From Escherichia coli (lineage in GTDB: Bacteria > Pseudomonadota > Gammaproteobacteria > Enterobacterales > Enterobacteriaceae): a DNA stretch of 64,000 bases. This document shows, one piece after another, positions 5,827 to 52,422 of this stretch. Positions within the stretch are counted from its first letter, which is position 1, and every line of letters begins with the position of its first letter. Location: assembly GCF_044324875.1 (NCBI RefSeq), contig NZ_CP172185.1. One strand, given 5' to 3'. The notes under the pieces are model-generated. The model was not told the origin of the DNA. It saw only the letters and a program-made list of their open reading frames with translations, and did no database searches. The position numbers and the translations under genes are program-made.

Positions 5827-6636
5827 ATGAATGATTCACTCAAGGCGCAATGCGTTGCCGAGTTTTTGGGCACCGGACTGTTCCTCTTTTTTGGCATTGG
5901 TTGTTTGTGCGCCCTGAAACTTGCCGGGGCAAGTCTGGGACTGTGGGAAATTTGTATCATTTGGGGGTTAGGGATTTCGCTTGCTGTTTACCTTACGGCA
6001 GGTATTTCCGGCGCTCATCTCAACCCGGCAGTTACCATTGCTCTGTGGCTGTTTGCCTCTTTCCCAGCCCGTAAAGTGCTGCCATTTTGTGTGGTGCAAT
6101 TAGCGGGTGCCTTTGGTGGTGCGGTTCTGGCATATTTTCTCTACAGCAGTTTGTTTACCGATTTTGAATCTGCTCACAATATGGTGCGTGGTAGTGCAGA
6201 AAGTTTACAACTCGCCAGTATCTTCAGTACTTATCCGGCAGCGGCGATTAATGTATGGCAAGCTGCGTTGGTCGAAGTGGTCATAACGTCCATGTTAATG
6301 GGGTTGATTATGGCGTTGACCGATGACGGTAATGGCGTACCCAAAGGACCGCTTGCGCCTTTACTTATTGGTATTCTGGTTGCTGTTATTGGTGCTTCTA
6401 CCGGACCATTAACCGGTTTTGCCATGAATCCAGCGCGTGATTTTGGACCTAAAATTTTCACCTGGCTTGCGGGTTGGGGGGAAATTGCGATGACTGGTGG
6501 ACGCAATATTCCTTATTTCATTGTACCCATTATTGCACCGATCATTGGCGCATGTGTTGGTGCGGCGATTTATCGCTATCTCATTGCAAAGAATTTACCT
6601 GTCAATAGTGTTACACCTAAAGAAATCAGCGAATAA
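5827..6636 (+). CDS. pduF: Propanediol diffusion facilitator (MIP/aquaporin family)
   Basis: ORF track frame 5788..6636; likely start at internal MNDSLKAQC... preceded by an AAGGTG ribosome-binding site; multiple transmembrane segments and MIP-type NPA motifs (NPAVT, NPARD). Confidence 0.85.
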   Translation: MNDSLKAQCVAEFLGTGLFLFFGIGCLCALKLAGASLGLWEICIIWGLGISLAVYLTAGISGAHLNPAVTIALWLFASFPARKVLPFCVVQLAGAFGGAVLAYFLYSSLFTDFESAHNMVRGSAESLQLASIFSTYPAAAINVWQAALVEVVITSMLMGLIMALTDDGNGVPKGPLAPLLIGILVAVIGASTGPLTGFAMNPARDFGPKIFTWLAGWGEIAMTGGRNIPYFIVPIIAPIIGACVGAAIYRYLIAKNLPVNSVTPKEISE

Positions 6637-10102: not shown

Positions 10103-11182
10103 ATGCAAACACTTGCCAATTTACTGAATACGATCCCTGCCATCGATCCTGCCGCTATGTCGCGTGCACAACGGCATATTGACGGGTTACTCAAACCTGT
10201 TGGTAGCCTGGGAAGGCTGGAGGCGCTTGGCGTACAACTGGCGGGAATGCCGGGGTTGAATGGCATACCGCATGTGGGCAAAAAAGCGGTACTGGTTATG
10301 TGTGCCGATCACGGCGTCTGGGAGGAAGGGGTCGCTATTTCCCCAAAAGAAGTCACAGCCATTCAGGCTGAAAATATGACCCGCGGAACAACCGGCGTGT
10401 GTGTGCTGGCAGCACAAGCGGGCGCTAACGTCCACGTAATTGATGTTGGTATTGATACTGCTGAGCCTATCCCCGGGCTTATCAACATGCGTGTCGCACG
10501 AGGTAGCGGCAATATTGCTTCAGCTCCGGCAATGAGTCGCCGTCAGGCTGAAACGTTGCTTTTGGACGTCATATGTTATACGCGGGATCTGGCAAAAAAC
10601 GGTGTCACGCTGTTTGGTGTAGGTGAATTGGGGATGGCAAACACGACACCGGCAGCGGCGATAGTGAGCACAATCACTGGCCGGGCTCCTGAAGAAGTGG
10701 TTGGGATTGGCGCAAACCTGCCGACAGATAAACTGGCTAATAAAATTGATGTTGTGCGACGGGCGATTACGTTGAATCAACCAAATCCGCAGGATGGCGT
10801 TGATGTCCTGGCAAAAGTGGGTGGATTTGATTTGGTCGGAATGGCTGCCGTGATGTTAGGCGCTGCGTCCTGCGGTTTACCGGTGTTGCTGGATGGATTT
10901 CTTTCTTATGCTGCTGCGCTCGCAGCCTGCCAGATGTCTCCTGCAATCAAACCGTATCTCATTCCTTCTCACCTGTCGGCAGAAAAAGGGGCGCGTATAG
11001 CGCTGTCACATTTGGGGCTGGAGCCTTATCTCAATATGGAGATGCGTTTAGGTGAGGGGAGTGGCGCAGCTCTGGCGATGCCCATCATCGAAGCTGCTTG
11101 TTCGATATACAACAACATGGGCGAACTTGCTGCCAGTAATATTGTTCTACCGGGGAATACGACTTCTGATTTGAACAGTTAA
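10103..11182 (+). CDS. cobT: Nicotinate-nucleotide--dimethylbenzimidazole phosphoribosyltransferase
   Basis: 359 aa [35 protein letters not shown]..., matching CobT. Confidence 0.95.
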
Positions 11183-12234: not shown

Positions 12235-12310
12235 TGGCTCCTCTGACTGGACTCGAACCAGTGACATACGGATTAACAGTCCGCCGTTCTACCGACTGAA
12301 CTACAGAGGA
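12235..12310 (-). tRNA. asnV: tRNA-Asn (anticodon GUU)
   Basis: Reverse complement reads TCCTCTGTAGTTCAGTCGGTAGAACGGCGGACTGTTAATCCG...GGTTCGAGTCCAGTCAGAGGAGCCA, the E. coli tRNA-Asn sequence; gene name assigned by position. Confidence 0.95.
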
Positions 12311-12635
12311 ATCGTGTGAACGGGGCGCATATTAATGGCAGTGCATGGTGATGTCAAAGGGTGAAATGCATTTTTTTGTTTGTTTGCTGTCAATTTCAAC
12401 AAAGTGGTGAGCTTTCAATCTTATTGGTAATGAACCATCGTGGTGCATACCCTCCTTTTATGGGGCAGGGGAACGCGACAGCTGATAAAAAGAGCCAATG
12501 ACGAACCTATCATAATCTCTTATTTGACAGTTGGTTAGCTTGTACATCAACGCCAAAATAAAACTGGCAAGCATCTTGCAATCTGGTTGTAAGTAATGGC
12601 GGCACTTGGGCCGATTCTTATAAACCGGAGGCAAC

Positions 12636-13553
12636 ATGAACTTCAGACGCCTGAAATACTTCGTAAAAATTGTAGATATTGGTAGCCTGACCCAGGCTGC
12701 TGAAGTATTGCATATCGCACAACCAGCGCTCAGTCAGCAGGTTGCCACACTGGAAGGTGAGTTAAATCAACAGCTTTTGATTCGCACAAAACGGGGCGTT
12801 ACGCCAACTGACGCCGGAAAAATTCTCTATACCCATGCGCGGGCCATTTTACGTCAGTGTGAGCAGGCCCAACTGGCGGTGCATAACGTTGGTCAGGCAT
12901 TATCGGGGCAAGTCTCGATTGGCTTTGCGCCAGGAACCGCTGCGTCATCCATCACCATGCCCTTATTACAGGCGGTTCGCGCTGAATTCCCGGAGGTCGT
13001 TATCTATCTTCATGAAAATAGCGGTGCAGTGCTTAACGAAAAACTGATAAATCACCAACTCGATATGGCGGTGATTTATGAGCATTCCCCTGTGGCTGGT
13101 GTATCCAGTCAGGCTTTACTGAAAGAAGATCTTTTTCTGGTAGGAACTCAAGATTGCCCGGGGCAAAGCGTTGATGTTAATGCTATTGCGCAAATGAACC
13201 TCTTTCTCCCCAGTGATTACAGTGCTATTAGACTTCGTGTTGATGAGGCTTTTTCCCTACGGCGACTCACGGCAAAAGTCATTGGTGAAATTGAGTCTAT
13301 TGCCACGCTTACCGCAGCGATTGCCAGCGGCATGGGCGTTGCAGTATTACCCGAATCGGCCGCGCGTTCGTTATGTGGCGCAGTAAATGGGTGGATGTCA
13401 CGCATTACCACTCCTTCCATGAGTCTCTCTTTGTCATTAAATTTACCCGCCAGAGCGAACTTATCGCCACAGGCACAGGCAGTGAAAGAGTTGTTAATGT
13501 CAGTGATGAGTTCTCCAGTGATGGAAAAAAGGCAGTGGCAATTGGTGAGCTAA
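12636..13553 (+). CDS. nac: LysR-family nitrogen assimilation control protein
   Basis: 305 aa ORF with N-terminal LysR HTH (MNFRRLKYFVKIVDIGSLTQAAEVLHIAQPALSQQV...). Confidence 0.9.
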   Translation: MNFRRLKYFVKIVDIGSLTQAAEVLHIAQPALSQQVATLEGELNQQLLIRTKRGVTPTDAGKILYTHARAILRQCEQAQLAVHNVGQALSGQVSIGFAPGTAASSITMPLLQAVRAEFPEVVIYLHENSGAVLNEKLINHQLDMAVIYEHSPVAGVSSQALLKEDLFLVGTQDCPGQSVDVNAIAQMNLFLPSDYSAIRLRVDEAFSLRRLTAKVIGEIESIATLTAAIASGMGVAVLPESAARSLCGAVNGWMSRITTPSMSLSLSLNLPARANLSPQAQAVKELLMSVMSSPVMEKRQWQLVS

Positions 13554-13654
13554 GCGTTATATCGGGATGGAATAAGATGCGGGTTTTTATTATTTGTTAT
13601 GCCGGGCATTAGACTTTAACAATAACGGGATATCTGAACTGCCCGGAGTTTACC

Positions 13655-14605
13655 GTGAATTTCCAACAACTAAAGATAATCCGCGAGGCTGCACGTCAGG
13701 ATTACAACCTGACAGAGGTTGCGAATATGCTTTTTACCTCACAGTCAGGCGTCAGCCGTCACATTCGGGAACTGGAGGATGAACTTGGCATCGAAATATT
13801 TGTTCGACGAGGTAAGCGACTGCTGGGCATGACTGAACCGGGCAAAGCATTACTGGTCATTGCAGAACGCATTCTTAATGAAGCCAGTAATGTTCGTCGG
13901 CTTGCAGACCTGTTTACCAACGATACGTCTGGCGTTCTCACTATTGCAACGACGCATACTCAGGCACGTTATAGCTTGCCTGAGGTCATTAAAGCTTTTC
14001 GCGAACTTTTCCCGGAGGTTCGGCTGGAGCTAATCCAGGGTACGCCACAGGAAATTGCGACGTTGTTGCAAAATGGCGAAGCTGATATTGGTATCGCCAG
14101 CGAGCGTTTGAGTAATGACCCGCAGCTCGTCGCCTTCCCGTGGTTTCGTTGGCACCATAGTTTGCTTGTTCCACTCGATCATCCCTTGACGCAAATTACA
14201 CCGTTGACGCTGGAATCAATAGTGAAGTGGCCGTTAATCACTTACCGACAGGGGATTACGGGGCGCTCACGTATTGATGACGCATTTGCCCGCAAAGGTT
14301 TGCTGGCAGATATTGTATTAAGTGCGCAGGATTCTGATGTCATTAAAACCTATGTTGCTCTTGGGCTGGGGATTGGATTAGTTGCCGAACAATCCAGCGG
14401 CGAACAAGAGGAAGAGAATTTAATCCGTCTGGATACGCGGCATCTTTTCGATGCCAATACTGTATGGTTGGGACTGAAGCGAGGGCAACTTCAACGTAAC
14501 TATGTCTGGCGCTTTCTGGAACTTTGTAATGCAGGACTGTCAGTTGAGGATATCAAGCGCCAGGTGATGGAGAACAGTGAAGAGGAAATTGATTATCAGA
14601 TATAG
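13655..14605 (+). CDS. cbl: LysR-family regulator Cbl
   Basis: 316 aa ORF MNFQQLKIIREAARQDYNLTEVANMLFTSQSGVSRHIRELE...; CysB-like, adjacent to nac as in E. coli. Confidence 0.9.
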   Translation: MNFQQLKIIREAARQDYNLTEVANMLFTSQSGVSRHIRELEDELGIEIFVRRGKRLLGMTEPGKALLVIAERILNEASNVRRLADLFTNDTSGVLTIATTHTQARYSLPEVIKAFRELFPEVRLELIQGTPQEIATLLQNGEADIGIASERLSNDPQLVAFPWFRWHHSLLVPLDHPLTQITPLTLESIVKWPLITYRQGITGRSRIDDAFARKGLLADIVLSAQDSDVIKTYVALGLGIGLVAEQSSGEQEEENLIRLDTRHLFDANTVWLGLKRGQLQRNYVWRFLELCNAGLSVEDIKRQVMENSEEEIDYQI

Positions 14606-14606
14606 C

Positions 14607-14634
14607 AAAAAGCCCGCTATAAAAGCGGGCTTTT
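14607..14634. terminator. Intrinsic terminator hairpin after cbl
   Basis: AAAAAGCCCGC-TATAAA-GCGGGCTTTT immediately after the cbl stop. Confidence 0.6.
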
Positions 14635-14642
14635 CAGAAATT

Positions 14643-14718
14643 TGGCTCCTCTGACTGGACTCGAACCAGTGACATACGGATTAACAGTCCGCCGTTCTAC
14701 CGACTGAACTACAGAGGA
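14643..14718 (-). tRNA. asnU: tRNA-Asn (anticodon GUU)
   Basis: Same 76-nt tRNA-Asn sequence on the minus strand. Confidence 0.95.
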
Positions 14719-14878
14719 ATCGCTGTTGAGGCACATCTTAACGGCGAAAAATCTTTTGTCAAACCCGATTTTTAAATTTCCCAACTGTTTGCCGTTTCTA
14801 TCAACAGTTTGTTGCATTTGCAGACAATTTGTTGGCGAAAATCTTTGCAGCTTTGCTGATTCTCCCTCATTATTTGAA

Positions 14879-16366
14879 ATGTGGTTTCACTTTCTGCAAT
14901 TAAGGTCGGCTTTGAATATCTCCTCTGCTTTACGCCAGGTTGTTCACGGCACTCGCTGGCACGCCAAACGCAAGAGTTACAAAGTGTTGTTCTGGCGCGA
15001 GATAACCCCGCTTGCTGTTCCTATCTTCATGGAGAACGCCTGTGTCCTGTTGATGGGTGTCCTGAGCACTTTTCTGGTCAGCTGGCTGGGAAAAGATGCG
15101 ATGGCCGGCGTGGGATTGGCGGACAGCTTCAATATGGTCATTATGGCATTTTTTGCGGCTATCGATCTTGGTACCACTGTCGTTGTGGCATTTAGTCTCG
15201 GTAAGCGGGATCGACGACGAGCGAGGGTGGCGACGCGGCAGTCATTGGTGATCATGACGTTGTTTGCCGTGCTGTTGGCAACGCTTATTCATCATTTTGG
15301 CGAACAAATTATTGATTTCGTTGCGGGTGATGCCACGACAGAAGTTAAAGCACTGGCGTTGACTTATCTGGAGCTGACGGTACTCAGTTATCCAGCAGCT
15401 GCCATCACTTTGATTGGTAGTGGTGCACTTCGTGGTGCAGGGAATACGAAAATACCGCTACTGATTAACGGTAGCCTGAATATTCTTAATATTATTATTA
15501 GCGGCATATTGATTTACGGCCTTTTCTCCTGGCCGGGACTGGGATTTGTCGGGGCTGGGTTGGGTTTAACCATTTCTCGTTATATTGGCGCAGTGGCAAT
15601 TTTGTGGGTGCTGGCGATTGGTTTTAATCCTGCGCTAAGGATTTCGTTAAAGAGCTATTTTAAACCGCTGAATTTTAGCATTATCTGGGAAGTCATGGGG
15701 ATTGGTATTCCAGCAAGTGTCGAATCAGTATTATTTACCAGTGGTCGGTTATTAACCCAAATGTTCGTTGCCGGGATGGGGACCAGTGTTATTGCCGGAA
15801 ATTTTATCGCGTTTTCAATTGCGGCTCTTATCAACTTACCCGGAAGTGCGCTCGGCTCTGCTTCTACGATCATTACAGGCCGAAGGTTGGGAGTAGGGCA
15901 GATAGCGCAAGCAGAGATTCAGTTGCGGCATGTGTTCTGGCTGTCCACTCTTGGATTAACGGCCATCGCCTGGCTAACGGCTCCCTTTGCCGGGGTTATG
16001 GCATCGTTTTACACCCAGGATCCACAGGTTAAACATGTCGTTGTGATTCTGATTTGGCTAAATGCTTTATTTATGCCTATTTGGTCTGCCTCATGGGTGC
16101 TACCCGCTGGATTTAAGGGTGCTCGCGATGCACGTTACGCCATGTGGGTTTCTATGTTGAGCATGTGGGGTTGCCGGGTTGTAGTCGGTTATGTGCTGGG
16201 AATCATGCTTGGCTGGGGTGTGGTTGGTGTCTGGATGGGAATGTTTGCCGACTGGGCTGTGCGGGCCGTGCTGTTTTACTGGCGAATGGTTACTGGACGT
16301 TGGCTGTGGAAATATCCTCGACCTGAGCCGCAAAAGTGTGAAAAAAAGCCAGTTGTGTCGGAATAA
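14879..16366 (+). CDS. yeeO: MATE-family efflux transporter
   Basis: ORF track frame 14726..16366; start moved to an internal Met to give the roughly 495 aa I recall for YeeO; many transmembrane segments. Confidence 0.85.
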   Translation: MWFHFLQLRSALNISSALRQVVHGTRWHAKRKSYKVLFWREITPLAVPIFMENACVLLMGVLSTFLVSWLGKDAMAGVGLADSFNMVIMAFFAAIDLGTTVVVAFSLGKRDRRRARVATRQSLVIMTLFAVLLATLIHHFGEQIIDFVAGDATTEVKALALTYLELTVLSYPAAAITLIGSGALRGAGNTKIPLLINGSLNILNIIISGILIYGLFSWPGLGFVGAGLGLTISRYIGAVAILWVLAIGFNPALRISLKSYFKPLNFSIIWEVMGIGIPASVESVLFTSGRLLTQMFVAGMGTSVIAGNFIAFSIAALINLPGSALGSASTIITGRRLGVGQIAQAEIQLRHVFWLSTLGLTAIAWLTAPFAGVMASFYTQDPQVKHVVVILIWLNALFMPIWSASWVLPAGFKGARDARYAMWVSMLSMWGCRVVVGYVLGIMLGWGVVGVWMGMFADWAVRAVLFYWRMVTGRWLWKYPRPEPQKCEKKPVVSE

Positions 16367-16466
16367 ACGACAAAGTGCAGATTATTTCAGCAAACGATTT
16401 CAAATTTAAAAAACAGGCTTTGACATTGTGGATGAGCGTCGCTAATATTCGCCTCGTTCTCACGAT

Positions 16467-16542
16467 TCCTCTGTAGTTCAGTCGGTAGAACGGCGGACTG
16501 TTAATCCGTATGTCACTGGTTCGAGTCCAGTCAGAGGAGCCA
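16467..16542 (+). tRNA. asnW: tRNA-Asn (anticodon GUU)
   Basis: Plus-strand TCCTCTGTAGTTCAGTCGGTAGAACGGCGGACTGTTAATCCGTATGTCACTGGTTCGAGTCCAGTCAGAGGAGCCA. Confidence 0.95.
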
Positions 16543-31801: not shown

Positions 31802-31877
31802 TGGCTCCTCTGACTGGACTCGAACCAGTGACATACGGATTAACAGTCCGCCGTTCTACCGACTGAACTACAGAGGA
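31802..31877 (-). tRNA. asnT: tRNA-Asn (anticodon GUU)
   Basis: Fourth copy of the identical 76-nt tRNA-Asn sequence, minus strand. Confidence 0.95.
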
Positions 31878-31977
31878 ATCGTGTGAACGGGGCGCATATT
31901 ACTTAGCGGTACCTTGTCTGTCAACACTAAATTTCATAAGTCATTTCAATTGGTTAATTAATCTGCAAAGTTGTTAA

Positions 31978-32775
31978 TTAATGAACATTCGTCGTCGAAA
32001 ACGAGTCTGTATCATTAGCGTGATGCAGTCTCTGCAAAGGATCTTGTTGATAAAATTGGCAGAAACGTTGCCACAATGAAGGGAAACGAGGAGCAAAAAG
32101 TTCTGGGGCGCTAAAGAAATATTCAGAAAGTACGGCAAAACATTCAGCAGGATCACTGGCAGCATAAGCATCAATGCTCGCCGCATTCACGCCAACTAAT
32201 TCGATTTCTTCCTGAATGTTGTTCATTGCAGCATGAAGATCGTGTTCCCAGCCAGCAACCTCACGCAACGGAATAAAGGGAACTCCGCTGGCGCGATCGC
32301 CGTTACGGGTGTCCAGCTTATGAGCGACTTCATGAATAATCAGGTTAAAACCAGAAGCATCAAAAGAATCTTGTATATCCAACCAGTTCAAAACGATAGG
32401 CCCTTGCTGCCAGCTCTGACCTGACTGAACAATACGTTGGTTATGCACCAGACCGATATCGTCTTCCCATTCATCATCGACCACAAATGGCGCAGGATAA
32501 ATTAAGACTTCATGAAAACCATCCAGCCATTCCAGTCCTAACTCCAGAACGGGAAGGCAAAATAGAAGTGCTATCCGGCAGCTTCTTAATGAATCCAGTT
32601 CAAAGCCCTGTAAAGGAACAAGCCGCTTTTGCTGTAAAAAACGTTCGGCAAGAGTGACTAATTTGCTTTGTTCCTGTTCCGTCAGACACGTTAAAAGGGG
32701 GATCGATAGTGCTTCCTGCCAGGGAAGGGCAGTTTGATGTGCTGATTCTTGTACTTTCCAGGGCCACTTAATCAT
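31978..32775 (-). CDS. mtfA: Zinc-dependent peptidase MtfA (Mlc titration factor A)
   Basis: ORF track frame 31978..32814; start at internal MIKWPWK...; HEXXH zinc motif ([10 protein letters not shown]). Confidence 0.9.
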
Positions 32776-32867
32776 CGTTTTGCTCGCAAACTCGTCACTT
32801 GAACAAAATTGCACGGACAGGGACTGTTAAAATGCCAAATTTCCTGGCATCATGGCAACCATCTGAA

Positions 32868-32957
32868 CGGAGAGATGCCGGAGCGGCTGAACGGACCGGT
32901 CTCGAAAACCGGAGTGGGGGCAACTCCACCGGGGGTTCAAATCCCCCTCTCTCCGCC
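32868..32957 (+). tRNA. serU: tRNA-Ser (anticodon CGA)
   Basis: GGAGAGATGCCGGAGCGGCTGAACGGACCGGTCTCGAAAACCGGAGTGGGGGCAACTCCACCGGGGGTTCAAATCCCCCTCTCTCCGCCA: long-variable-arm class II tRNA with anticodon CGA. Confidence 0.9.
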
Positions 32958-33002
32958 AAAATTCAATCACTTATACATCATTAAGTCAGTGACAAAAATC
33001 AC

Positions 33003-33038
33003 ACTTGGAATTACTTGGAATATTTTCTTGGAATATTT
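33003..33038. repeat. Three direct CTTGGAAT repeats next to the attachment site (candidate integrase arm-type sites)
   Basis: CTTGGAAT at about 33003, 33013 and 33026, with GGAATATTTT occurring twice; lies between the tRNA-Ser 3' end and the integrase 3' end. Confidence 0.35.
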
Positions 33039-34036
33039 TCAGGTAACGGGACATCAAGTGTTGGTGAAACTTTAACCTTCCGGTCATAGATTAGCACTTG
33101 CCCTTCGGTTTTGTGACCAGAGAAAAGTTGCTTATCCCGGCTGCTTCCTTCATAGTCTGAAATTCCTTTCGCCTTCAGATCATGAAAGGTGAAGTCGGTT
33201 AAAATACCTGAAACTTTGCCTGCGCGATTTCTTGCTTCTACCCACATTTCGTTAAAGCCTTTGTACATATATCGGTTGCCGTATTGATTGCTGATCACAT
33301 AGGCGGATTTTGGTAACTGTTTTGCTTTTTCGACCGCTGCCTGTAATCGTGGACTCCATGCTTTTATCTGTTTTTTCCCTGTTTTCCCTTGCTGGATAAA
33401 GATCCCGTCGTTTCCAATCTGCTCCCATTTCAGCGATAACACATCGGAAACCCTCGCTGCACACAGATAGGCAATTTCCATTGCGATAAAAACAGGAAGG
33501 GGTGCCACGCTTAATACTGCCTGGTATTCTTTGTCGGTTACATATCGTTCGCGGTTTTTGGCCTTGAATTTACTTACTCCTGCACATGGGTTAGCCTTCA
33601 CGTACCCTCGCTCATACCCCCAACTGTAAACACGGGACATACTGCTTTTTTCATGGTTGGCTTGCGTTTTACTCTGTTCCCCTCTTTTGTCCATGTATCG
33701 ACGGATGTGTTCTGGTTTTATGGAATCCGCTGGTACCTTACCGAATACGGCAAGCAACTTTTTTTGATGTTGCAGATAATCTTTTTGTGTTCTTGGACTA
33801 AGGTCACTGTAACAGGCGCTGGCGAGGAATTTTTCCCACAAGCGACCGAATGTCATTGCACGATCGCGATTATTTACAGTTTCCTCATACTTTTTCCATA
33901 AAGCAGCTAAACCATCCTTGATGGCGGTTAGTGTTACAGATTCTCTGGATGTTGGTTTCCATACATAACTATATTTATTTGGGTATACATTTGGAGGTAA
34001 TTTTTCGTGTTCAGGATTTTTCCTTCGTCTTCCCAT
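33011..34036 (-). CDS. int: Tyrosine recombinase (phage integrase)
   Basis: 341 aa ORF adjacent to the tRNA and reading toward it; C-terminal region has tyrosine-recombinase-like R...HxxR...Y spacing (…FTFHDLKAKGISDYEGS…HKTEGQVLIYDRK…). Confidence 0.85.
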   Translation of the reverse strand: MGRRRKNPEHEKLPPNVYPNKYSYVWKPTSRESVTLTAIKDGLAALWKKYEETVNNRDRAMTFGRLWEKFLASACYSDLSPRTQKDYLQHQKKLLAVFGKVPADSIKPEHIRRYMDKRGEQSKTQANHEKSSMSRVYSWGYERGYVKANPCAGVSKFKAKNRERYVTDKEYQAVLSVAPLPVFIAMEIAYLCAARVSDVLSLKWEQIGNDGIFIQQGKTGKKQIKAWSPRLQAAVEKAKQLPKSAYVISNQYGNRYMYKGFNEMWVEARNRAGKVSGILTDFTFHDLKAKGISDYEGSSRDKQLFSGHKTEGQVLIYDRKVKVSPTLDVPLPENIPRKYSK

Positions 34037-48158: not shown

Positions 48159-48524
48159 ATGACTGAAAGCATAGAATTTGTTTTGCCTTACCCGCCAACG
48201 GTGAACACCTACTGGCGACGTCGTGGCAGCACATATTTTGTATCAAAAGCCGGTGAGCGTTATCGCCGTGATGTGGCGCTCATTGTTCGCCAGCAGCGGC
48301 TGAAGTTAAACCTGTCCGGACGGCTGGCGATAAAGATTATTGCAGAGCCACCGGATAAACGTCGTCGTGACCTGGACAATATCCTGAAAGCACCACTGGA
48401 TGCGCTGACGCATGCCGGACTTCTCATAGACGACGAGCAGTTTGATGAAATCAATATTGTGCGCGGTCAGCGCGTTCCTGGGGGGCGGCTGGGCGTGAAG
48501 ATTTACAAAATTGAGAGTGAGTGA
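48159..48524 (+). CDS. rusA: Holliday junction resolvase RusA
   Basis: 121 aa MTESIEFVLPYPPTVNTYW... with the RusA acidic motif RRRDLDN. Confidence 0.85.
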   Translation: MTESIEFVLPYPPTVNTYWRRRGSTYFVSKAGERYRRDVALIVRQQRLKLNLSGRLAIKIIAEPPDKRRRDLDNILKAPLDALTHAGLLIDDEQFDEINIVRGQRVPGGRLGVKIYKIESE

Positions 48525-49111
48525 TCGTAAATATGATATACCCGGAAATTACAGGCAAAAGCGGCGAGCATTTACGTCTAAAAACGCTGGAAGCCGTCTG
48601 GATCCAGGGGAAATTACGGATGTGGGGGCGTTGGTCGTATATCAGTGGAGGGACTAGCGGTAACATGTTTAACCAACTGCTTGTATCCAGCAAAATTACC
48701 AAAACTGCAATCAACGATGCGCTGCGCCGTATGAAAAAGTCAGGCATTACGAAACCAGAGCTCGAAGCTTATTTGCGCGAAATACTCAACAGTAAAAACA
48801 AAAGTAGTCTGGCGTTTTGCTCGGACGATGAAGGCCTGAAGATTGACGGTGTGATCGCCTCGGTGCTGATGAATAATGATTACCGTTCTCTATACGGTGT
48901 GATTGTTGGCCGGTATCGTCTGCGTAAGAGCAAGTTGCAAATGGCCAATGAGCTTCATATTAAACATCCTGACTGGGCGCTCATTACCTGTCGCCGCCGA
49001 GTTGACACATGGATAAGTTTGGCCGAATCGCTCCTGTACGTTCCACTATGTGATGCGTTTGGCACAAATAGCGACAGATTTAAATTGCAAAGTGAGCAAG
49101 AAAGTGCTTGA
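48521..49111 (+). CDS. Putative late-gene antiterminator (Q-position protein)
   Basis: 196 aa ORF between rusA and the lysis cassette; assignment is positional only. Confidence 0.4.
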   Translation: MIVNMIYPEITGKSGEHLRLKTLEAVWIQGKLRMWGRWSYISGGTSGNMFNQLLVSSKITKTAINDALRRMKKSGITKPELEAYLREILNSKNKSSLAFCSDDEGLKIDGVIASVLMNNDYRSLYGVIVGRYRLRKSKLQMANELHIKHPDWALITCRRRVDTWISLAESLLYVPLCDAFGTNSDRFKLQSEQESA

Positions 49112-49510
49112 ATTGTGATAAGCTCGGGACGAAAAGCGAACTGAGCAACATAATAGTAAGAACCCGCCATTGTGCGGGTTTTTTTGTCTGCACAACAGGT
49201 AAGAGCACTGAACCCGCAGACCTCGCGGAACTGGTGAAAGGTGCCGCGCAGTGCTCTTATCGTTGTGGTGAAGCTCAATGGCGAGCTAGCAGATAGGCGA
49301 CAGTGAAAATACTAGTCATGTATCTGACCGCCGCGCGTACTGCAATCGGCAGCGCACCGATGGAAGCCGGTTCGATTCCGGCCGCCACAACCCAAACTGA
49401 GCCGTAGCCACTGGCTGTCCTGAACTCCTCAGTGATAGTTACGCTGCGGCCTTCTTTTTCCCCTTCCTAATACAAGAACTACGCAATCCGTTACTGGCGG
49501 AGGCGTTGCT

Positions 49511-49726
49511 ATGAAATCCATGGATAAGATAACAACGGGTGTCGCCTATGGCACCTCGGCAGGCAGTGCCGGGTACTGGTTTTTACAGTGGCTTGATCAG
49601 GTTAGTCCGTCACAGTGGGCTGCTATTGGTGTGCTGGGGAGTCTGGCACTGGGCTTTCTGACTTATCTGACGAATCTGTATTTCAAAATTAAAGATGATC
49701 GGCGCAAAGTGGCGCGGGGAGAGTAG
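49511..49726 (+). CDS. Holin (phage 21 S21 pinholin-like, dual-start motif)
   Basis: [71 protein letters not shown], closely matching what I recall of S21 including the Met-Lys-Ser-Met dual start. Confidence 0.85.
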
Positions 49727-49729
49727 GCG

Positions 49730-50041
49730 ATGAATAAAAAATACGAACTGGTTATTAAAGGGATAAGTAGTCACCCGGATAAGGTTGTGGTTACTGTGGC
49801 GCTGGAGAGCGACGGCTATCCGACGCTGTTTTCGCCGCATGTGGTGATTAAGCTTGATCGTGTTGACGGCGCAGCGCTGGAGCTTTATGAAGCAGAGGCG
49901 AAAAAACGAGCGAAGAAGATTTTTATGGATGCTGCTGCCGGGTTATGTGAAGCGTGGTCGTTGCCGGAAAAGCGCCTCCATTCAGAGGCGCGGTATACCA
50001 TAAAAATTAACGGTTCAGATAACTCAATTGCTGGTTTTTAA
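49730..50041 (+). CDS. Hypothetical protein translationally coupled to the holin
   Basis: 103 aa ORF starting 4 nt after the holin stop with GGAGAG upstream; no transmembrane segment or recognised motif. Confidence 0.5.
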   Translation: MNKKYELVIKGISSHPDKVVVTVALESDGYPTLFSPHVVIKLDRVDGAALELYEAEAKKRAKKIFMDAAAGLCEAWSLPEKRLHSEARYTIKINGSDNSIAGF

Positions 50042-50277
50042 CCTTTTGTCTCAGTTGGCTTTCCAATATCTTTCATTGGTAGCAGCATTTCGATATTGCT
50101 TTTGATATATGGATTATCTGCATGTTCTGTTAATTGATAAATGATAGCATTTTTTTCATTCTGGTCTAATACAGAAAACATAACTGCAATCATATATTTA
50201 AGAGCCTCAATTTCTCCTGTTGTTGAGTTGGGGGATGAACAGTCCGCTGTAACATTAATAAAAGTTTCTTTTTTCAT
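50038..50277 (-). CDS. Hypothetical protein, convergent, AT-rich
   Basis: 79 aa ORF with AAGGA ribosome-binding site; 3' end overlaps the 3' end of the upstream plus-strand gene by 4 nt; visibly AT-rich. Confidence 0.45.
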   Translation of the reverse strand: MKKETFINVTADCSSPNSTTGEIEALKYMIAVMFSVLDQNEKNAIIYQLTEHADNPYIKSNIEMLLPMKDIGKPTETKG

Positions 50278-50401
50278 ATCAGATCCTTAGATGGGGTAGC
50301 TCAGCCAACCACCCGAGCCTTAACCGGAACGCCAGTGCCCACTACACTACTGGCGGGCTGAGGCTTTAACATATCCAGGGTTCAGAAAACGATAAATATC
50401 C

Positions 50402-50935
50402 ATGAGCACAAAAATCAGATACGGCCTGTCGGCTGCCGTTCTGGCGTTGATTGCTGCAGGTGCATCCGCTCCCGTCATTCTTGACCAGTTTCTGGACGAA
50501 AAAGAAGGTAATCACACTACGGCATACCGTGATGGCTCCGGTATATGGACCATCTGTCGGGGTGCCACGATGGTGGATGGAAAACCCGTTTTTCCCGGTA
50601 TGAAACTGTCGAAGGAAAAATGCGACCAGGTCAACGCCATCGAACGGGATAAGGCGCTGGCATGGGTGGAGCGCAATATTAAAGTTCCACTGACCGAAGC
50701 ACAGAAAGCGGGTATTGCGTCATTCTGTCCCTATAACATTGGCCCCGGTAAGTGTTTCCCGTCGACGTTTTATAAGCGGCTGAATGCCGGTGATCGTAAG
50801 GGCGCATGCGAGGCGATTCGCTGGTGGATAAAAGATGGTGGGCGCGATTGCCGCATACGTTCAAATAACTGCTATGGACAGGTTATTCGTCGTGACCAGG
50901 AAAGCGCATTAGCCTGTTGGGGAATAGATCAGTGA
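50402..50935 (+). CDS. Phage lysozyme (T4-lysozyme fold) with N-terminal signal-anchor, SAR-endolysin-like
   Basis: N-terminal hydrophobic [21 protein letters not shown] followed by catalytic E-x8-D-x5-T ([16 protein letters not shown]). Confidence 0.8.
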
Positions 50936-51399
50936 GCAGAGTCGCCGCGATTATTTATGCTCTGGTTATCTGCACTATCGTCTGCCTGTCGTGGGCGGTC
51001 AATCATTACCGTGATAACGCCATAGCCTACAAAGAACAGCGTGATAAAAAAGTCAGTGAGCTGAAGCAGGCGATCGCCACCATCGCTGACATGCAGCAGC
51101 GTCAGCGTGATGTTGCTGCGCTCGATGCAAAGTACTCGAGAGAATTAGCCAATGCGAAAGCTGAAAATGAAACTCTGCGCGCTGATGTTGCCGCTGGTCG
51201 TAAGCGCCTGCGGGTCAATGTCAGTTGCTCCGAAGCCGTGCGTGAAGCCACCGGACCCACCAGCGTGGATAATGCAACCAGCCCCCGACTGGCAGACACC
51301 GCTGAACGGGATTATTTCACCCTCAGAGAACGGTTGATGACGATGCAGAAGCAACTGGAAGGGGCACAGGAGTATATCCGCACTCAGTGCATTAAGTAG
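50932..51399 (+). CDS. Spanin, inner-membrane subunit (Rz)
   Basis: GTG start overlapping the endolysin stop; [38 protein letters not shown]... closely matches lambda Rz from memory. Confidence 0.8.
51152..51337 (+). CDS. Spanin, outer-membrane lipoprotein subunit (Rz1), embedded in Rz in the +1 frame
   Basis: [21 protein letters not shown]...[32 protein letters not shown]: lipobox and proline-rich region matching lambda Rz1. Confidence 0.8.
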
Positions 51400-51441: not shown

Positions 51442-51792
51442 ATGCCATCACGAATCCCACGCGCCTGCCGTAAGCGTGGATGTGCAGGTACAACCACAGA
51501 CAGTTCTGGTTACTGCGATAAACATCGTGGCGAAGGATGGGTACAGCATCAACGCGGACTGAGCCGCCACCAGCGTGGCTATGGCTCGAAATGGGATGCC
51601 ATACGTGCGCGCATACTGAAGCGTGATAATCATCTGTGTCAGAACTGCCTGTGCAATGGGAGAGCTGTTGAAGCCAGAACTGTGGACCACATCATTCCGA
51701 AAGCTCATGGTGGCACGGATGCAGACAGTAACCTGCAGAGTCTGTGCTGGCCCTGTCATAAAGCAAAAACAGCGCGCGAACGCATCAATTGA
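51442..51792 (+). CDS. HNH endonuclease (terminase-associated)
   Basis: 116 aa with ...CQNC...DHIIPKAHGG...NLQSLCWPCH...; directly upstream of the terminase small subunit. Confidence 0.8.
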   Translation: MPSRIPRACRKRGCAGTTTDSSGYCDKHRGEGWVQHQRGLSRHQRGYGSKWDAIRARILKRDNHLCQNCLCNGRAVEARTVDHIIPKAHGGTDADSNLQSLCWPCHKAKTARERIN

Positions 51793-51939: not shown

Positions 51940-52422
51940 ATGTCAGGACCCCCGAAAACCCCGCCACGCCTGCATTTGATACGAGGCAACCCCTCAAAGC
52001 GCCCCGTTAAAGACCCAAAAAAAACCGCTAAAAAGGATGAAAAAGGTCTCCCTAAAATTCCGCAACATTTAGGGTCGCAGGGGAAGTACTGGTTCAGGCG
52101 AATGGCGGAAGAACTGAATGCGGAAGGGATCATTTCTCAGCTTGATGCGCGTGCACTCGAGTTACTGGTGGAAGCCTACACCGAATACCGGCATTACTGC
52201 GAAACACTCGATGTTGAGGGGTATACCTACCGCACGGAAACGCAGAACGGTGATGTGCTGATTAAGGCACACCCGGCTGCTGCGATGAAAGCGGATGCCT
52301 GGAAGCGGATCCGGGCGATGCTTGCAGAATTTGGTATGTCACCGGCAAGCCGGGCGAAAGTAAATACCGCCGGACCGGATGATGTTGATCCGCTGGCGGA
52401 GCTTTTAAAAGCGAGAGACTGA
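51940..52422 (+). CDS. Terminase small subunit
   Basis: 160 aa ORF immediately preceding and abutting the terminase large subunit. Confidence 0.7.
   Translation: MSGPPKTPPRLHLIRGNPSKRPVKDPKKTAKKDEKGLPKIPQHLGSQGKYWFRRMAEELNAEGIISQLDARALELLVEAYTEYRHYCETLDVEGYTYRTETQNGDVLIKAHPAAAMKADAWKRIRAMLAEFGMSPASRAKVNTAGPDDVDPLAELLKARD

Follow-up and report, generated by a model that had tools for sequence, protein, structure and literature searches.

The lysis cassettes closest to the one considered here are those of the Escherichia coli K-12 prophage Qin and of phage 21 and DLP12. The subject of this report is a 64,000-nucleotide (nt) stretch of E. coli DNA (the window; RefSeq assembly GCF_044324875.1, contig NZ_CP172185.1), in which two small open reading frames (ORFs), named ORF103 and ORF79 after the lengths of their products in amino acids (aa), occupy positions 49,730 to 50,277, between the holin and endolysin genes of such a cassette. 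In Qin, the genes essQ-ydfR-rrrQ-rzpQ provide, as in the window, an S21-type holin, a 103-aa protein of the DUF1327 family, a 177-aa lysozyme of the rrrQ type and spanins; ydfR begins 4 nt after essQ, rrrQ overlaps the ydfR stop, and there is no antisense gene. The window differs from Qin in that a 360-nt segment containing ORF79 parts the DUF1327 gene from the lysozyme gene, and in that ORF103 has a C-terminal tail of another type. The arrangement of phage 21 and DLP12 (essD-rrrD-rzpD) shares with the window the holin family and the overall logic of a pinholin, a signal-anchor-type endolysin and spanins; however, in DLP12 the holin and lysozyme genes are adjacent, the 165-aa lysozyme is 34 % identical to that of the window, and a DUF1327 gene is lacking. 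A further point of comparison is the moron class of lambdoid genes, in the sense of Juhala and Hendrix, of which bor and lom of phage lambda are examples. The definition of that class used here is also drawn from PMC2629481.

The reading favoured here, to which we assign a probability of roughly 0.6, is that two independent things lie between this holin and this endolysin: ORF103, a late gene of the YdfR/DUF1327 family, and ORF79, an acquired moron with what appears to be its own transcription unit. ORF103 is a catalogued and very common lysis-cassette gene; what is new is that ORF79 joins the moron class. As judged from family matches and patterns of substitution, both are real genes and not chance ORFs. 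A sequence-only reading that preceded this work had given the coordinates of the two genes, the start of ORF103 4 nt after the holin stop (the fourth base, behind a 3-nt spacer), the 4-nt overlap of the convergent 3' ends and the AT-richness of ORF79, and all of these were confirmed. It had also proposed that the two are an acquired cargo pair, a description that holds for ORF79 as acquired cargo and fails for ORF103 as cargo and for the two genes as a pair.

That ORF103 belongs to no recognised family, as had been claimed, is wrong. Its residues 1-94 match positions 1-89 of the 93 in Pfam PF07041 (DUF1327/YdfR; E = 2.2e-27), it also matches PHROGs 2091, 2735, 1085 and 406 (families without assigned function), and RefSeq labels its homologues 'DUF1327 domain-containing' or 'YdfR family' protein. 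Identity to K-12 YdfR (P76160) is 44 % over the first 78 residues. Prevalence was counted across 5426 complete E. coli genomes. DUF1327 genes, detected by blastn with the N-terminal DNA (a lower bound), occur at no fewer than 6694 places in at least 3153 genomes, with up to eight per genome. By comparison, the S21-type holin was found at 16376 places in 5162 genomes, the rrrQ-type 177-aa lysozyme at 11112 places in 4427, and the rrrD-type 165-aa lysozyme at 6257 places in 3995; the rrrD-type matches that were listed run on into essD, which puts the holin gene directly beside the lysozyme gene, as in DLP12. A survey of IMG/VR with the DUF1327 profile returned 80 loci, 77 of them including the holin, and in 76 of these 77 the DUF1327 ATG lies 3-4 nt 3' of the holin stop, as it does in Qin. 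The order holin-DUF1327-lysozyme is likewise annotated in BP-4795, mEp460, PhiR12_2, phage 86 and many Stx1a and Stx2c phages. On these comparisons, ORF103 is a regular YdfR/DUF1327 member of cassettes that combine an S21 pinholin with an rrrQ-type endolysin, and not cargo.

The premise of the sequence-only reading, that in cassettes with this holin the endolysin follows directly, therefore covers the rrrD/R21 class only, because DUF1327 recurs across the other large cassette class. Comparison with related prophages carrying the S21-type holin, which that reading had called for, gives a divided answer: holin and endolysin are adjacent in the rrrD-type cassettes, as in DLP12, and a DUF1327 gene between them is the norm in the rrrQ-type cassettes to which the window belongs. 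Likewise, the possibility that both genes are standard members of the cassette type is borne out for ORF103 as a common member; ORF79 is instead rare and under purifying selection. With the DUF1327 ATG 3-4 nt past the holin stop and, in the window, a GGAG within the last holin codons, 8 nt 5' of the ATG, ORF103 would be translated from the late transcript that depends on Q, in a ratio to the holin that is probably fixed, and the two genes are probably translationally coupled.

As for what ORF103 does, literature searches on DUF1327, ydfR, the lysis cassette, morons and the leader sequence described below yielded a single relevant paper, on RNase E (PMC13232886, RNA Biol 2026). There, residues 1-72 of K-12 YdfR were recovered in a two-hybrid screen and are reported to interact with residues 1-597 of RNase E in a two-hybrid assay, full-length YdfR likewise interacted with RNase E 1-597, Strep-YdfR co-eluted with RNase E 1-598, and the YdfR eluates held DNase-resistant nucleic acid. 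The interacting region corresponds to the conserved domain, which is 44 % identical in ORF103 and which AlphaFold2 (AF2) models with confidence as a beta-beta-beta-alpha domain over residues 1-72; the tail, residues 75-103, is modelled with low confidence. Because this biochemistry of the K-12 protein is the sole experimental information found, ORF103 most likely, by analogy, binds the catalytic N-terminal half of RNase E, together with RNA, late in infection. It would be a small soluble protein, with a beta3-alpha domain of about 72 residues and a variable C-terminus, contacting membrane-bound RNase E and/or RNA; a role as a membrane component of the lysis machinery is less likely. The longest DUF1327 variant (385 aa) has no additional Pfam domain and no sequence relative in the PDB.

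Several phage proteins target RNase E, including gp0.7 of T7, Srd of T4 and Dip of phiKZ. If the K-12 result transfers, ORF103 resembles them in being a small phage protein that contacts this enzyme, and it resembles the host adaptor RapZ, which contacts the catalytic N-terminal half of RNase E (PMC13232886), in the site of contact. It differs from all four in that there is no relationship in sequence or fold and in that it is a late lysis-cassette gene.

Three points weigh against an RNase E-directed function. By its authors' account, the RNA that co-purified with YdfR in the K-12 study may have come from a contaminant (PMC13232886), and over-production of YdfR in K-12 altered few transcripts (PMC13232886), which suggests that binding to RNase E may lack regulatory consequence; moreover, a direct role in lysis would account just as well for the unvarying link of the gene to the holin and for its confinement to rrrQ-type cassettes. 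Such a role would make ORF103 a cytoplasmic regulator that binds the charged C-terminal tail of the pinholin, or controls membrane release of the rrrQ-type signal-anchor-release (SAR) endolysin, and thereby sets the timing of lysis. This is unlikely though far from negligible. Besides the constant 3-4 nt distance from the holin, it draws on the overlap of start and stop by which K-12 ydfR is also joined to its endolysin gene, on the finding that, in the survey, the 177-aa rrrQ-type lysozyme was the only one to accompany DUF1327, rrrD-type cassettes being without it, and on a K-12 envelope-integrity screen that flagged ydfR (Paradis-Bleau 2014, as cited in PMC13232886). However, ORF103 has no transmembrane or amphipathic segment (the maximum of its 19-residue Kyte-Doolittle-type hydropathy, KD19, is 1.08), and family and fold searches found no similarity to a holin, antiholin or releasin. 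Typical Stx2a phages, moreover, mostly lack DUF1327, and rrrQ-type cassettes thus probably work without it, and the sole direct biochemistry points to RNase E. An RNase E- and RNA-binding late protein consequently stays the preferred description of ORF103.

ORF79 is of a different kind. That it falls into no recognised family was upheld by profile searches of Pfam, NCBIfam and PADLOC, all empty, and no specific fold match was obtained; only phrog_21218 matches, over all 79 positions (E = 5.7e-47), and two distant relatives (P0008 and P0012) match the same PHROG. Against variants that are 82 % identical, the ratio of non-synonymous to synonymous change (dN/dS) is 0.26-0.29 in its own frame and 0.5-1.5 in most other frames; the sole other frame with an equally low value is the codon-phase-matched antisense frame, which contains three stops. 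By this measure, ORF79 is a real gene under purifying selection. Its DNA occurs at 113 places in 102 of the 5426 E. coli genomes, and Perceval, where the gene is unannotated, is the only deposited phage that carries it. A word-indexed search placed its relatives in E. coli only, whereas full HMMER and profile searches recovered homologues of 41-51 % identity from a metagenome, Salmonella, Klebsiella and Serratia. Five long HMMER matches (P0009-P0011, P0013 and P0015), each made up of multiple short stretches, were set aside as low-complexity noise. The product is acidic (isoelectric point 5.0) and soluble, its invariant residues include D12-C13, and AF2 gives it an extended N-terminus and three helices, with a predicted local distance difference test (pLDDT) score of 84.8.

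The homologues have a G+C fraction of 0.33-0.38 and are antisense to the late operon in every case, at two kinds of location. Those of Salmonella and of the metagenomic locus L010 lie between a Q-like antiterminator and a holin and are convergent to a 97-aa ORF; those of Klebsiella and Serratia lie between the Rz region and HNH/terminase genes. The Salmonella 97-aa ORF is upstream of a holin of a different type, and hicAB-like genes are found nearby in L010.

ORF79 is present or absent among closely related cassettes, and its base composition is unlike that of the surrounding operon, with a G+C fraction of 0.30-0.32 over ORF79 and about 0.52 on either side. Because it is AT-rich, patchy among close cassettes, antisense and furnished with promoter-like and terminator-like signals of its own, ORF79 is, on the evidence of the sequence, an acquired, mobile, AT-rich antisense moron. 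It shares with described morons that it is a small, patchy insertion in the late operon, of atypical composition and facing the opposite way; for the promoter and terminator that described morons have of their own, ORF79 offers candidate signals. In related cassettes, bor/iss is likewise antisense, just after Rz. It differs from bor and lom in lying inside the lysis cassette, in encoding a soluble cytoplasmic protein and not a lipoprotein, and in having a structured leader that is common to many unrelated ORFs; the covariance model of that leader found no copy upstream of iss in the related cassette L001.

The signals around ORF79 suggest a self-contained unit, consisting of a sigma-70-like promoter, an 84-nt structured leader, a Shine-Dalgarno sequence (AAGGA, 50288-50284, 6 nt 5' of the ATG), the ORF and a terminator-like hairpin. 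The promoter-like element overlaps the region just 5' of the endolysin ATG, and its TAnnnT hexamer lies exactly 6 nt 5' of the leader's first box in all five lineages and in most of the scorable IMG/VR loci. The hairpin falls inside the coding region of the ORF103 tail, 47 nt after the ORF79 stop, and hairpins with T-rich tails also occur 3' of the homologues in L010, L095 and L013. The putative promoter, leader and terminator-like hairpin thus appear to travel with ORF79 across lineages. Two features tell against a dedicated transcription unit: the promoter-like element of the window is weak (7 of 12 matches) and the terminator-like hairpin has only four U, and neither was called by a scan for consensus promoters and terminators, which listed nothing relevant around ORF79. 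Expression of ORF79 would not depend on late transcription and would most plausibly take place in the lysogen, and its product would be a small, acidic, three-helix cytoplasmic protein acting by binding a partner. The role of this protein most likely falls under superinfection exclusion, anti-defence or regulation.

The insertion, on the opposite strand, appears to have gone into a slot that follows the DUF1327 core, precedes the endolysin and is hypervariable. When ten cassettes are aligned, ORF103 itself proves to be a mosaic, with an N-terminal part like that of BP-4795 and PhiR12_2; from 'AAGLCE' on, the sequence of the tail, of ORF79 and of the intergenic region is like that of the Perceval/MLI105 type. 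The cassettes of K-12 and BP-4795 have no insert. In mEp460, about 45 nt of the ORF79 3' end persist between the DUF1327 stop and the endolysin (L004, 2316-2370), a remnant which indicates that there ORF79 was lost by deletion, rather than gained in the other lineages. Across the IMG/VR survey, DUF1327 ORFs range from 103 to 385 aa and combine a constant N-terminal domain of about 75 residues with differing C-terminal modules. Those modules are coiled-coil-like and of other kinds (loci L014-L093; PHROGs 2091, 1085, 36381 and 26186), and frameshifted, decaying versions of the gene are present in several loci of the same set. The distance from DUF1327 to the lysozyme is either 36-50 or 233-881 nt, and the long gaps hold at least five kinds of antisense ORF, namely ORF79 (phrog_21218) and ORFs of 86 aa (phrog_2572), 104-106 aa (phrog_1853), 87 aa (phrog_18136) and 233 aa (no PHROG match). 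None of the five has a PADLOC or NCBIfam match. The ORF79 family shows at best a faint likeness to a phrog_2572 member (E = 0.019, over 39 columns only) and no similarity signal to phrog_1853 or phrog_18136. The exact cassette variant of the window (49400-51000) occurs in one of the 5426 complete genomes (AR_0085, 97.7 % identity), all others being at most about 84 % identical. From that rarity, the cassette of the window would be a rare recombinant that joins a BP-4795-like DUF1327 head to a Perceval-like tail and ORF79.

The best conserved part of the ORF79 unit is its leader. The upstream ~100 nt align across E. coli, the metagenome, Salmonella, Serratia and Klebsiella even though the proteins are only 41-51 % identical, and RNAalifold predicts both leader stems. 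In the 8-base-pair (bp) hairpin P2, 95 % of the cells of the alignment of 13 sequences are paired and five of the eight pairs show compensatory changes, a result reached by none of 500 shuffles; slid controls were 16-45 % paired. One pair of the leader is U.G in 49, C-G in 8 and U-A in 8 of 66 distinct leaders, and the frequent U.G pair favours an RNA on the cargo-sense strand. Box1 (UCAGCC) and box2 (GGCUGA) are nearly invariant and complementary to each other, and as the GGCUGA lies in the loop of the second hairpin a pseudoknot with UCAGCC is possible. A third short stem around the GGCUGA box, with a 4-bp core, has modest support, since 19 of 500 shuffles reach the observed double changes.

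The inverted repeat that forms P2 (50330-50355) was also considered as DNA. As an operator it was rejected, being unique in the window and having arms that covary rather than stay constant, the two properties for which it is read as an RNA stem, and as a terminator it was rejected because no U-run follows in the window. The repeat may also bear some likeness to a half-site of lambda OL1.

A covariance model built from the leaders of the ORF79 family only finds one copy in the window (50275-50364, 78.6 bits; next best 10 bits) and also picks up the leaders of the phrog_1853, phrog_18136 and 233-aa cargo genes, on which it was not trained; in cassettes without cargo it finds none. A degenerate 28-nt core pattern is present in at least 120 IMG/VR loci (L100-L224), where at least 21 unrelated clusters of small ORFs (42-178 aa) stand behind it. 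Late genes were recognisable near the motif in 42 of these loci, and in all 42 they are on the opposite strand. The exact core pattern also occurs in representative genomes of Citrobacter and Enterobacter. Rfam has no match in 50278-50361 (E up to 1) or at the leaders of four other loci (E up to 0.1), and the leader sequence was not found in the literature searched. ORF79 may thus be one cargo of an undescribed and widespread platform of enterobacterial lambdoid prophages, in which a sigma-70-type promoter and a structured leader of about 80 nt serve more than 20 unrelated antisense small ORFs; we advance this tentatively, at somewhat less than an even chance. A described parallel is the set of 51-60-nt, Hfq-bound anti-sRNAs (RNAs directed against small RNAs) that lie between PR' morons and the next ORF in lambdoid prophages (Tree et al. 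2014, PMC4104026). The ORF79 leader is like them in being a conserved RNA element at a fixed position of the lambdoid late region, linked to moron insertion, and unlike them in being an mRNA leader of about 84 nt fused to an ORF, at another position and without an Rfam match. In two of the IMG/VR loci (L068 and L088), the shared hairpin is followed by TTTTT on the cargo-sense strand, just 5' of the phrog_1853 ORF. Lying there between the ORF and its putative promoter, it resembles an intrinsic terminator and might point to attenuation-type control.

Two other explanations touch the relation of ORF79 to what surrounds it. According to the one, ORF103 and ORF79 would form a functional pair, in which ORF79 made in the lysogen neutralises leaky ORF103, or its antisense transcript damps the late genes across the S-R junction. 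The 4-nt convergent overlap is kept in every E. coli copy examined, the terminator-like hairpin of ORF79 lies within the ORF103 coding region, and the E. coli copies listed adjoin a YdfR (DUF1327) gene, save for a few rows in which only hypothetical proteins are annotated. Furthermore, the 97-aa ORF (L010, 428-721; L095, 3726-4019) is convergent, with a 3-nt gap, to ORF79 homologues of 50 % identity and bears a faint resemblance to DUF1327 (phrog_2735 at E = 0.06, hhalign E = 0.011, collinear VEGKSLEQY/VEGAALEFY, no Pfam match). These associations count against treating the two genes as independent. However, fewer than 2 % of DUF1327 genes have an ORF79 beside them (113 places against at least 6694 in E. 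coli), the homologues of Klebsiella and Serratia adjoin unrelated ORFs far from any DUF1327 gene, and the same slot and leader carry unrelated ORFs. The 150-aa partner ORF of a distant ORF79 homologue gives no DUF1327 signal. The convergent genes are not co-transcribed, and searches of PADLOC, NCBIfam and Pfam matched neither to a toxin, antitoxin or defence family, nor did any toxin-antitoxin model; the study of K-12 YdfR reports growth arrest for YegJ only, and not for YdfR (PMC13232886). A functional pair is therefore improbable, and the toxin/immunity pair that the sequence-only reading had offered as an example is not supported, given the same low co-occurrence, the convergent orientation, the lack of a PADLOC toxin or defence match and the Klebsiella and Serratia homologues without DUF1327. 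As pictured here, ORF103 and ORF79 would be neighbours by insertion, and a pairing is not supported.

According to the other, the functional product would be the RNA, with the leader serving either as a small RNA or in antisense regulation of the late transcript, and with ORF79 as an incidental, swappable passenger. The leader is indeed far better conserved than what lies downstream, with its many unrelated ORF clusters, and the covariation, the G.U pairs and the near invariance of both boxes all speak for a structured RNA. It is very doubtful that the RNA alone matters, however, in that ORF79 is under purifying selection and its protein is conserved across genera, in that a Shine-Dalgarno sequence and an ATG stand at a fixed distance behind the leader in every cargo, and in that the window has no terminator between leader and ORF. 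A moron that encodes a protein behind a structured leader, next to an unrelated late gene, remains the preferred description of the locus.

Table 1. Coordinates of the cassette genes and of the signals associated with ORF79 (positions of the 64,000-nt window)
Feature	Position	Strand	Basis or detail
S21-type class II holin (pinholin), 71 aa	49511-49726	+	PHROG phrog_9876 (E 1e-33), phrog_20; homologues annotated essD/essQ or class II holin
Holin-ORF103 junction	49718-49732	+	GGAG 49718-49721, TAG (holin stop) 49724-49726, 3-nt spacer, ATG 49730-49732
ORF103, YdfR family/DUF1327, 103 aa	49730-50041	+	Pfam PF07041
Terminator-like hairpin GCGCCUC-UGAAUG-GAGGCGC-UUUU	49968-49991	-	minimum-free-energy fold; putative function
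Shared 4 nt of the ORF103 and ORF79 stops	50038-50041		convergent genes
ORF79, 79 aa, coding part of the antisense moron	50038-50277	-	phrog_21218
ORF79 5' leader, 84 nt	50278-50361	-	RNAalifold stems, covariation, covariance model
Box2, GGCUGA	50306-50301	-	complementary to box1
P2, 8-bp hairpin	50355-50348 paired with 50337-50330	-	
Box1, UCAGCC	50361-50356	-	invariant across five lineages
Promoter-like element	50368-50396	-	TTTATC 50396-50391, 17-nt spacer, TATGTT 50373-50368; conserved TAnnnT; putative
Endolysin, rrrQ type, 177 aa	50402-50935	+	phrog_7 endolysin (E 3e-63); homologues annotated rrrQ/lysozyme; N-terminal hydrophobic (SAR-like) segment
Rz-type i-spanin	50917-51399	+	ORF list; homologues annotated rzpD, lysis protein or Rz
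Rz1 o-spanin ORF, embedded in Rz	51152-51337		

Beyond the cassette (Table 1), several features of the window merit mention. Just 3' of a 196-aa Q-like ORF (48521-49111), a GC-rich hairpin, AACCCGCCATTGTGCGGGTT, with a T-run at 49161-49190 on the plus strand, resembles tR', the terminator of the late promoter region; the terminator scan gave this hairpin for the minus strand alone. The interval from the Q-like gene to the holin contains a 3' fragment (49335-49393, plus strand) resembling tRNA or transfer-messenger RNA (tmRNA), which scored 20 bits against the Rfam tmRNA model, below threshold, and in which ARAGORN called no tRNA; at the corresponding site, the related cassette L007 carries an intact tRNA-Ile. 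Downstream, a 116-aa HNH-endonuclease-like ORF (51442-51792, plus strand) follows Rz and precedes the gene for the small terminase subunit (51940-52422), and this slot is where the Klebsiella and Serratia homologues of ORF79 and many other leader-plus-cargo units are found. Upstream of the prophage are four tRNA-Asn genes and a tRNA-Ser(CGA) gene (12235-16542, 31802-32958). The tRNA-Ser gene (32869-32958) is directly followed by a 341-aa minus-strand ORF (33011-34036) that may be an integrase, and it is a candidate for the attachment site.

For the most part, the finding is an ordinary one. More than half of the complete E. coli genomes have a DUF1327 gene, which is locked to the pinholin stop yet has been little studied, and the interaction with RNase E opens it to direct tests with an inducible prophage. 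What lies between the DUF1327 core and the endolysin is a hot spot, and as such a place to seek accessory or anti-phage functions expressed in the lysogen. The most interesting by-product is the shared promoter and leader, which constitute a candidate new regulatory RNA in prophages of Escherichia, Salmonella, Klebsiella, Serratia, Citrobacter and Enterobacter. If the platform is as proposed, the leader would be a new cis-regulatory RNA, e.g. a 5' stabilizer against RNase E or a switch for expression in lysogeny or under stress, and recombination in the conserved flanks would allow prophages to exchange small accessory genes. The shared leader would also provide a handle for the systematic discovery of such cargo.

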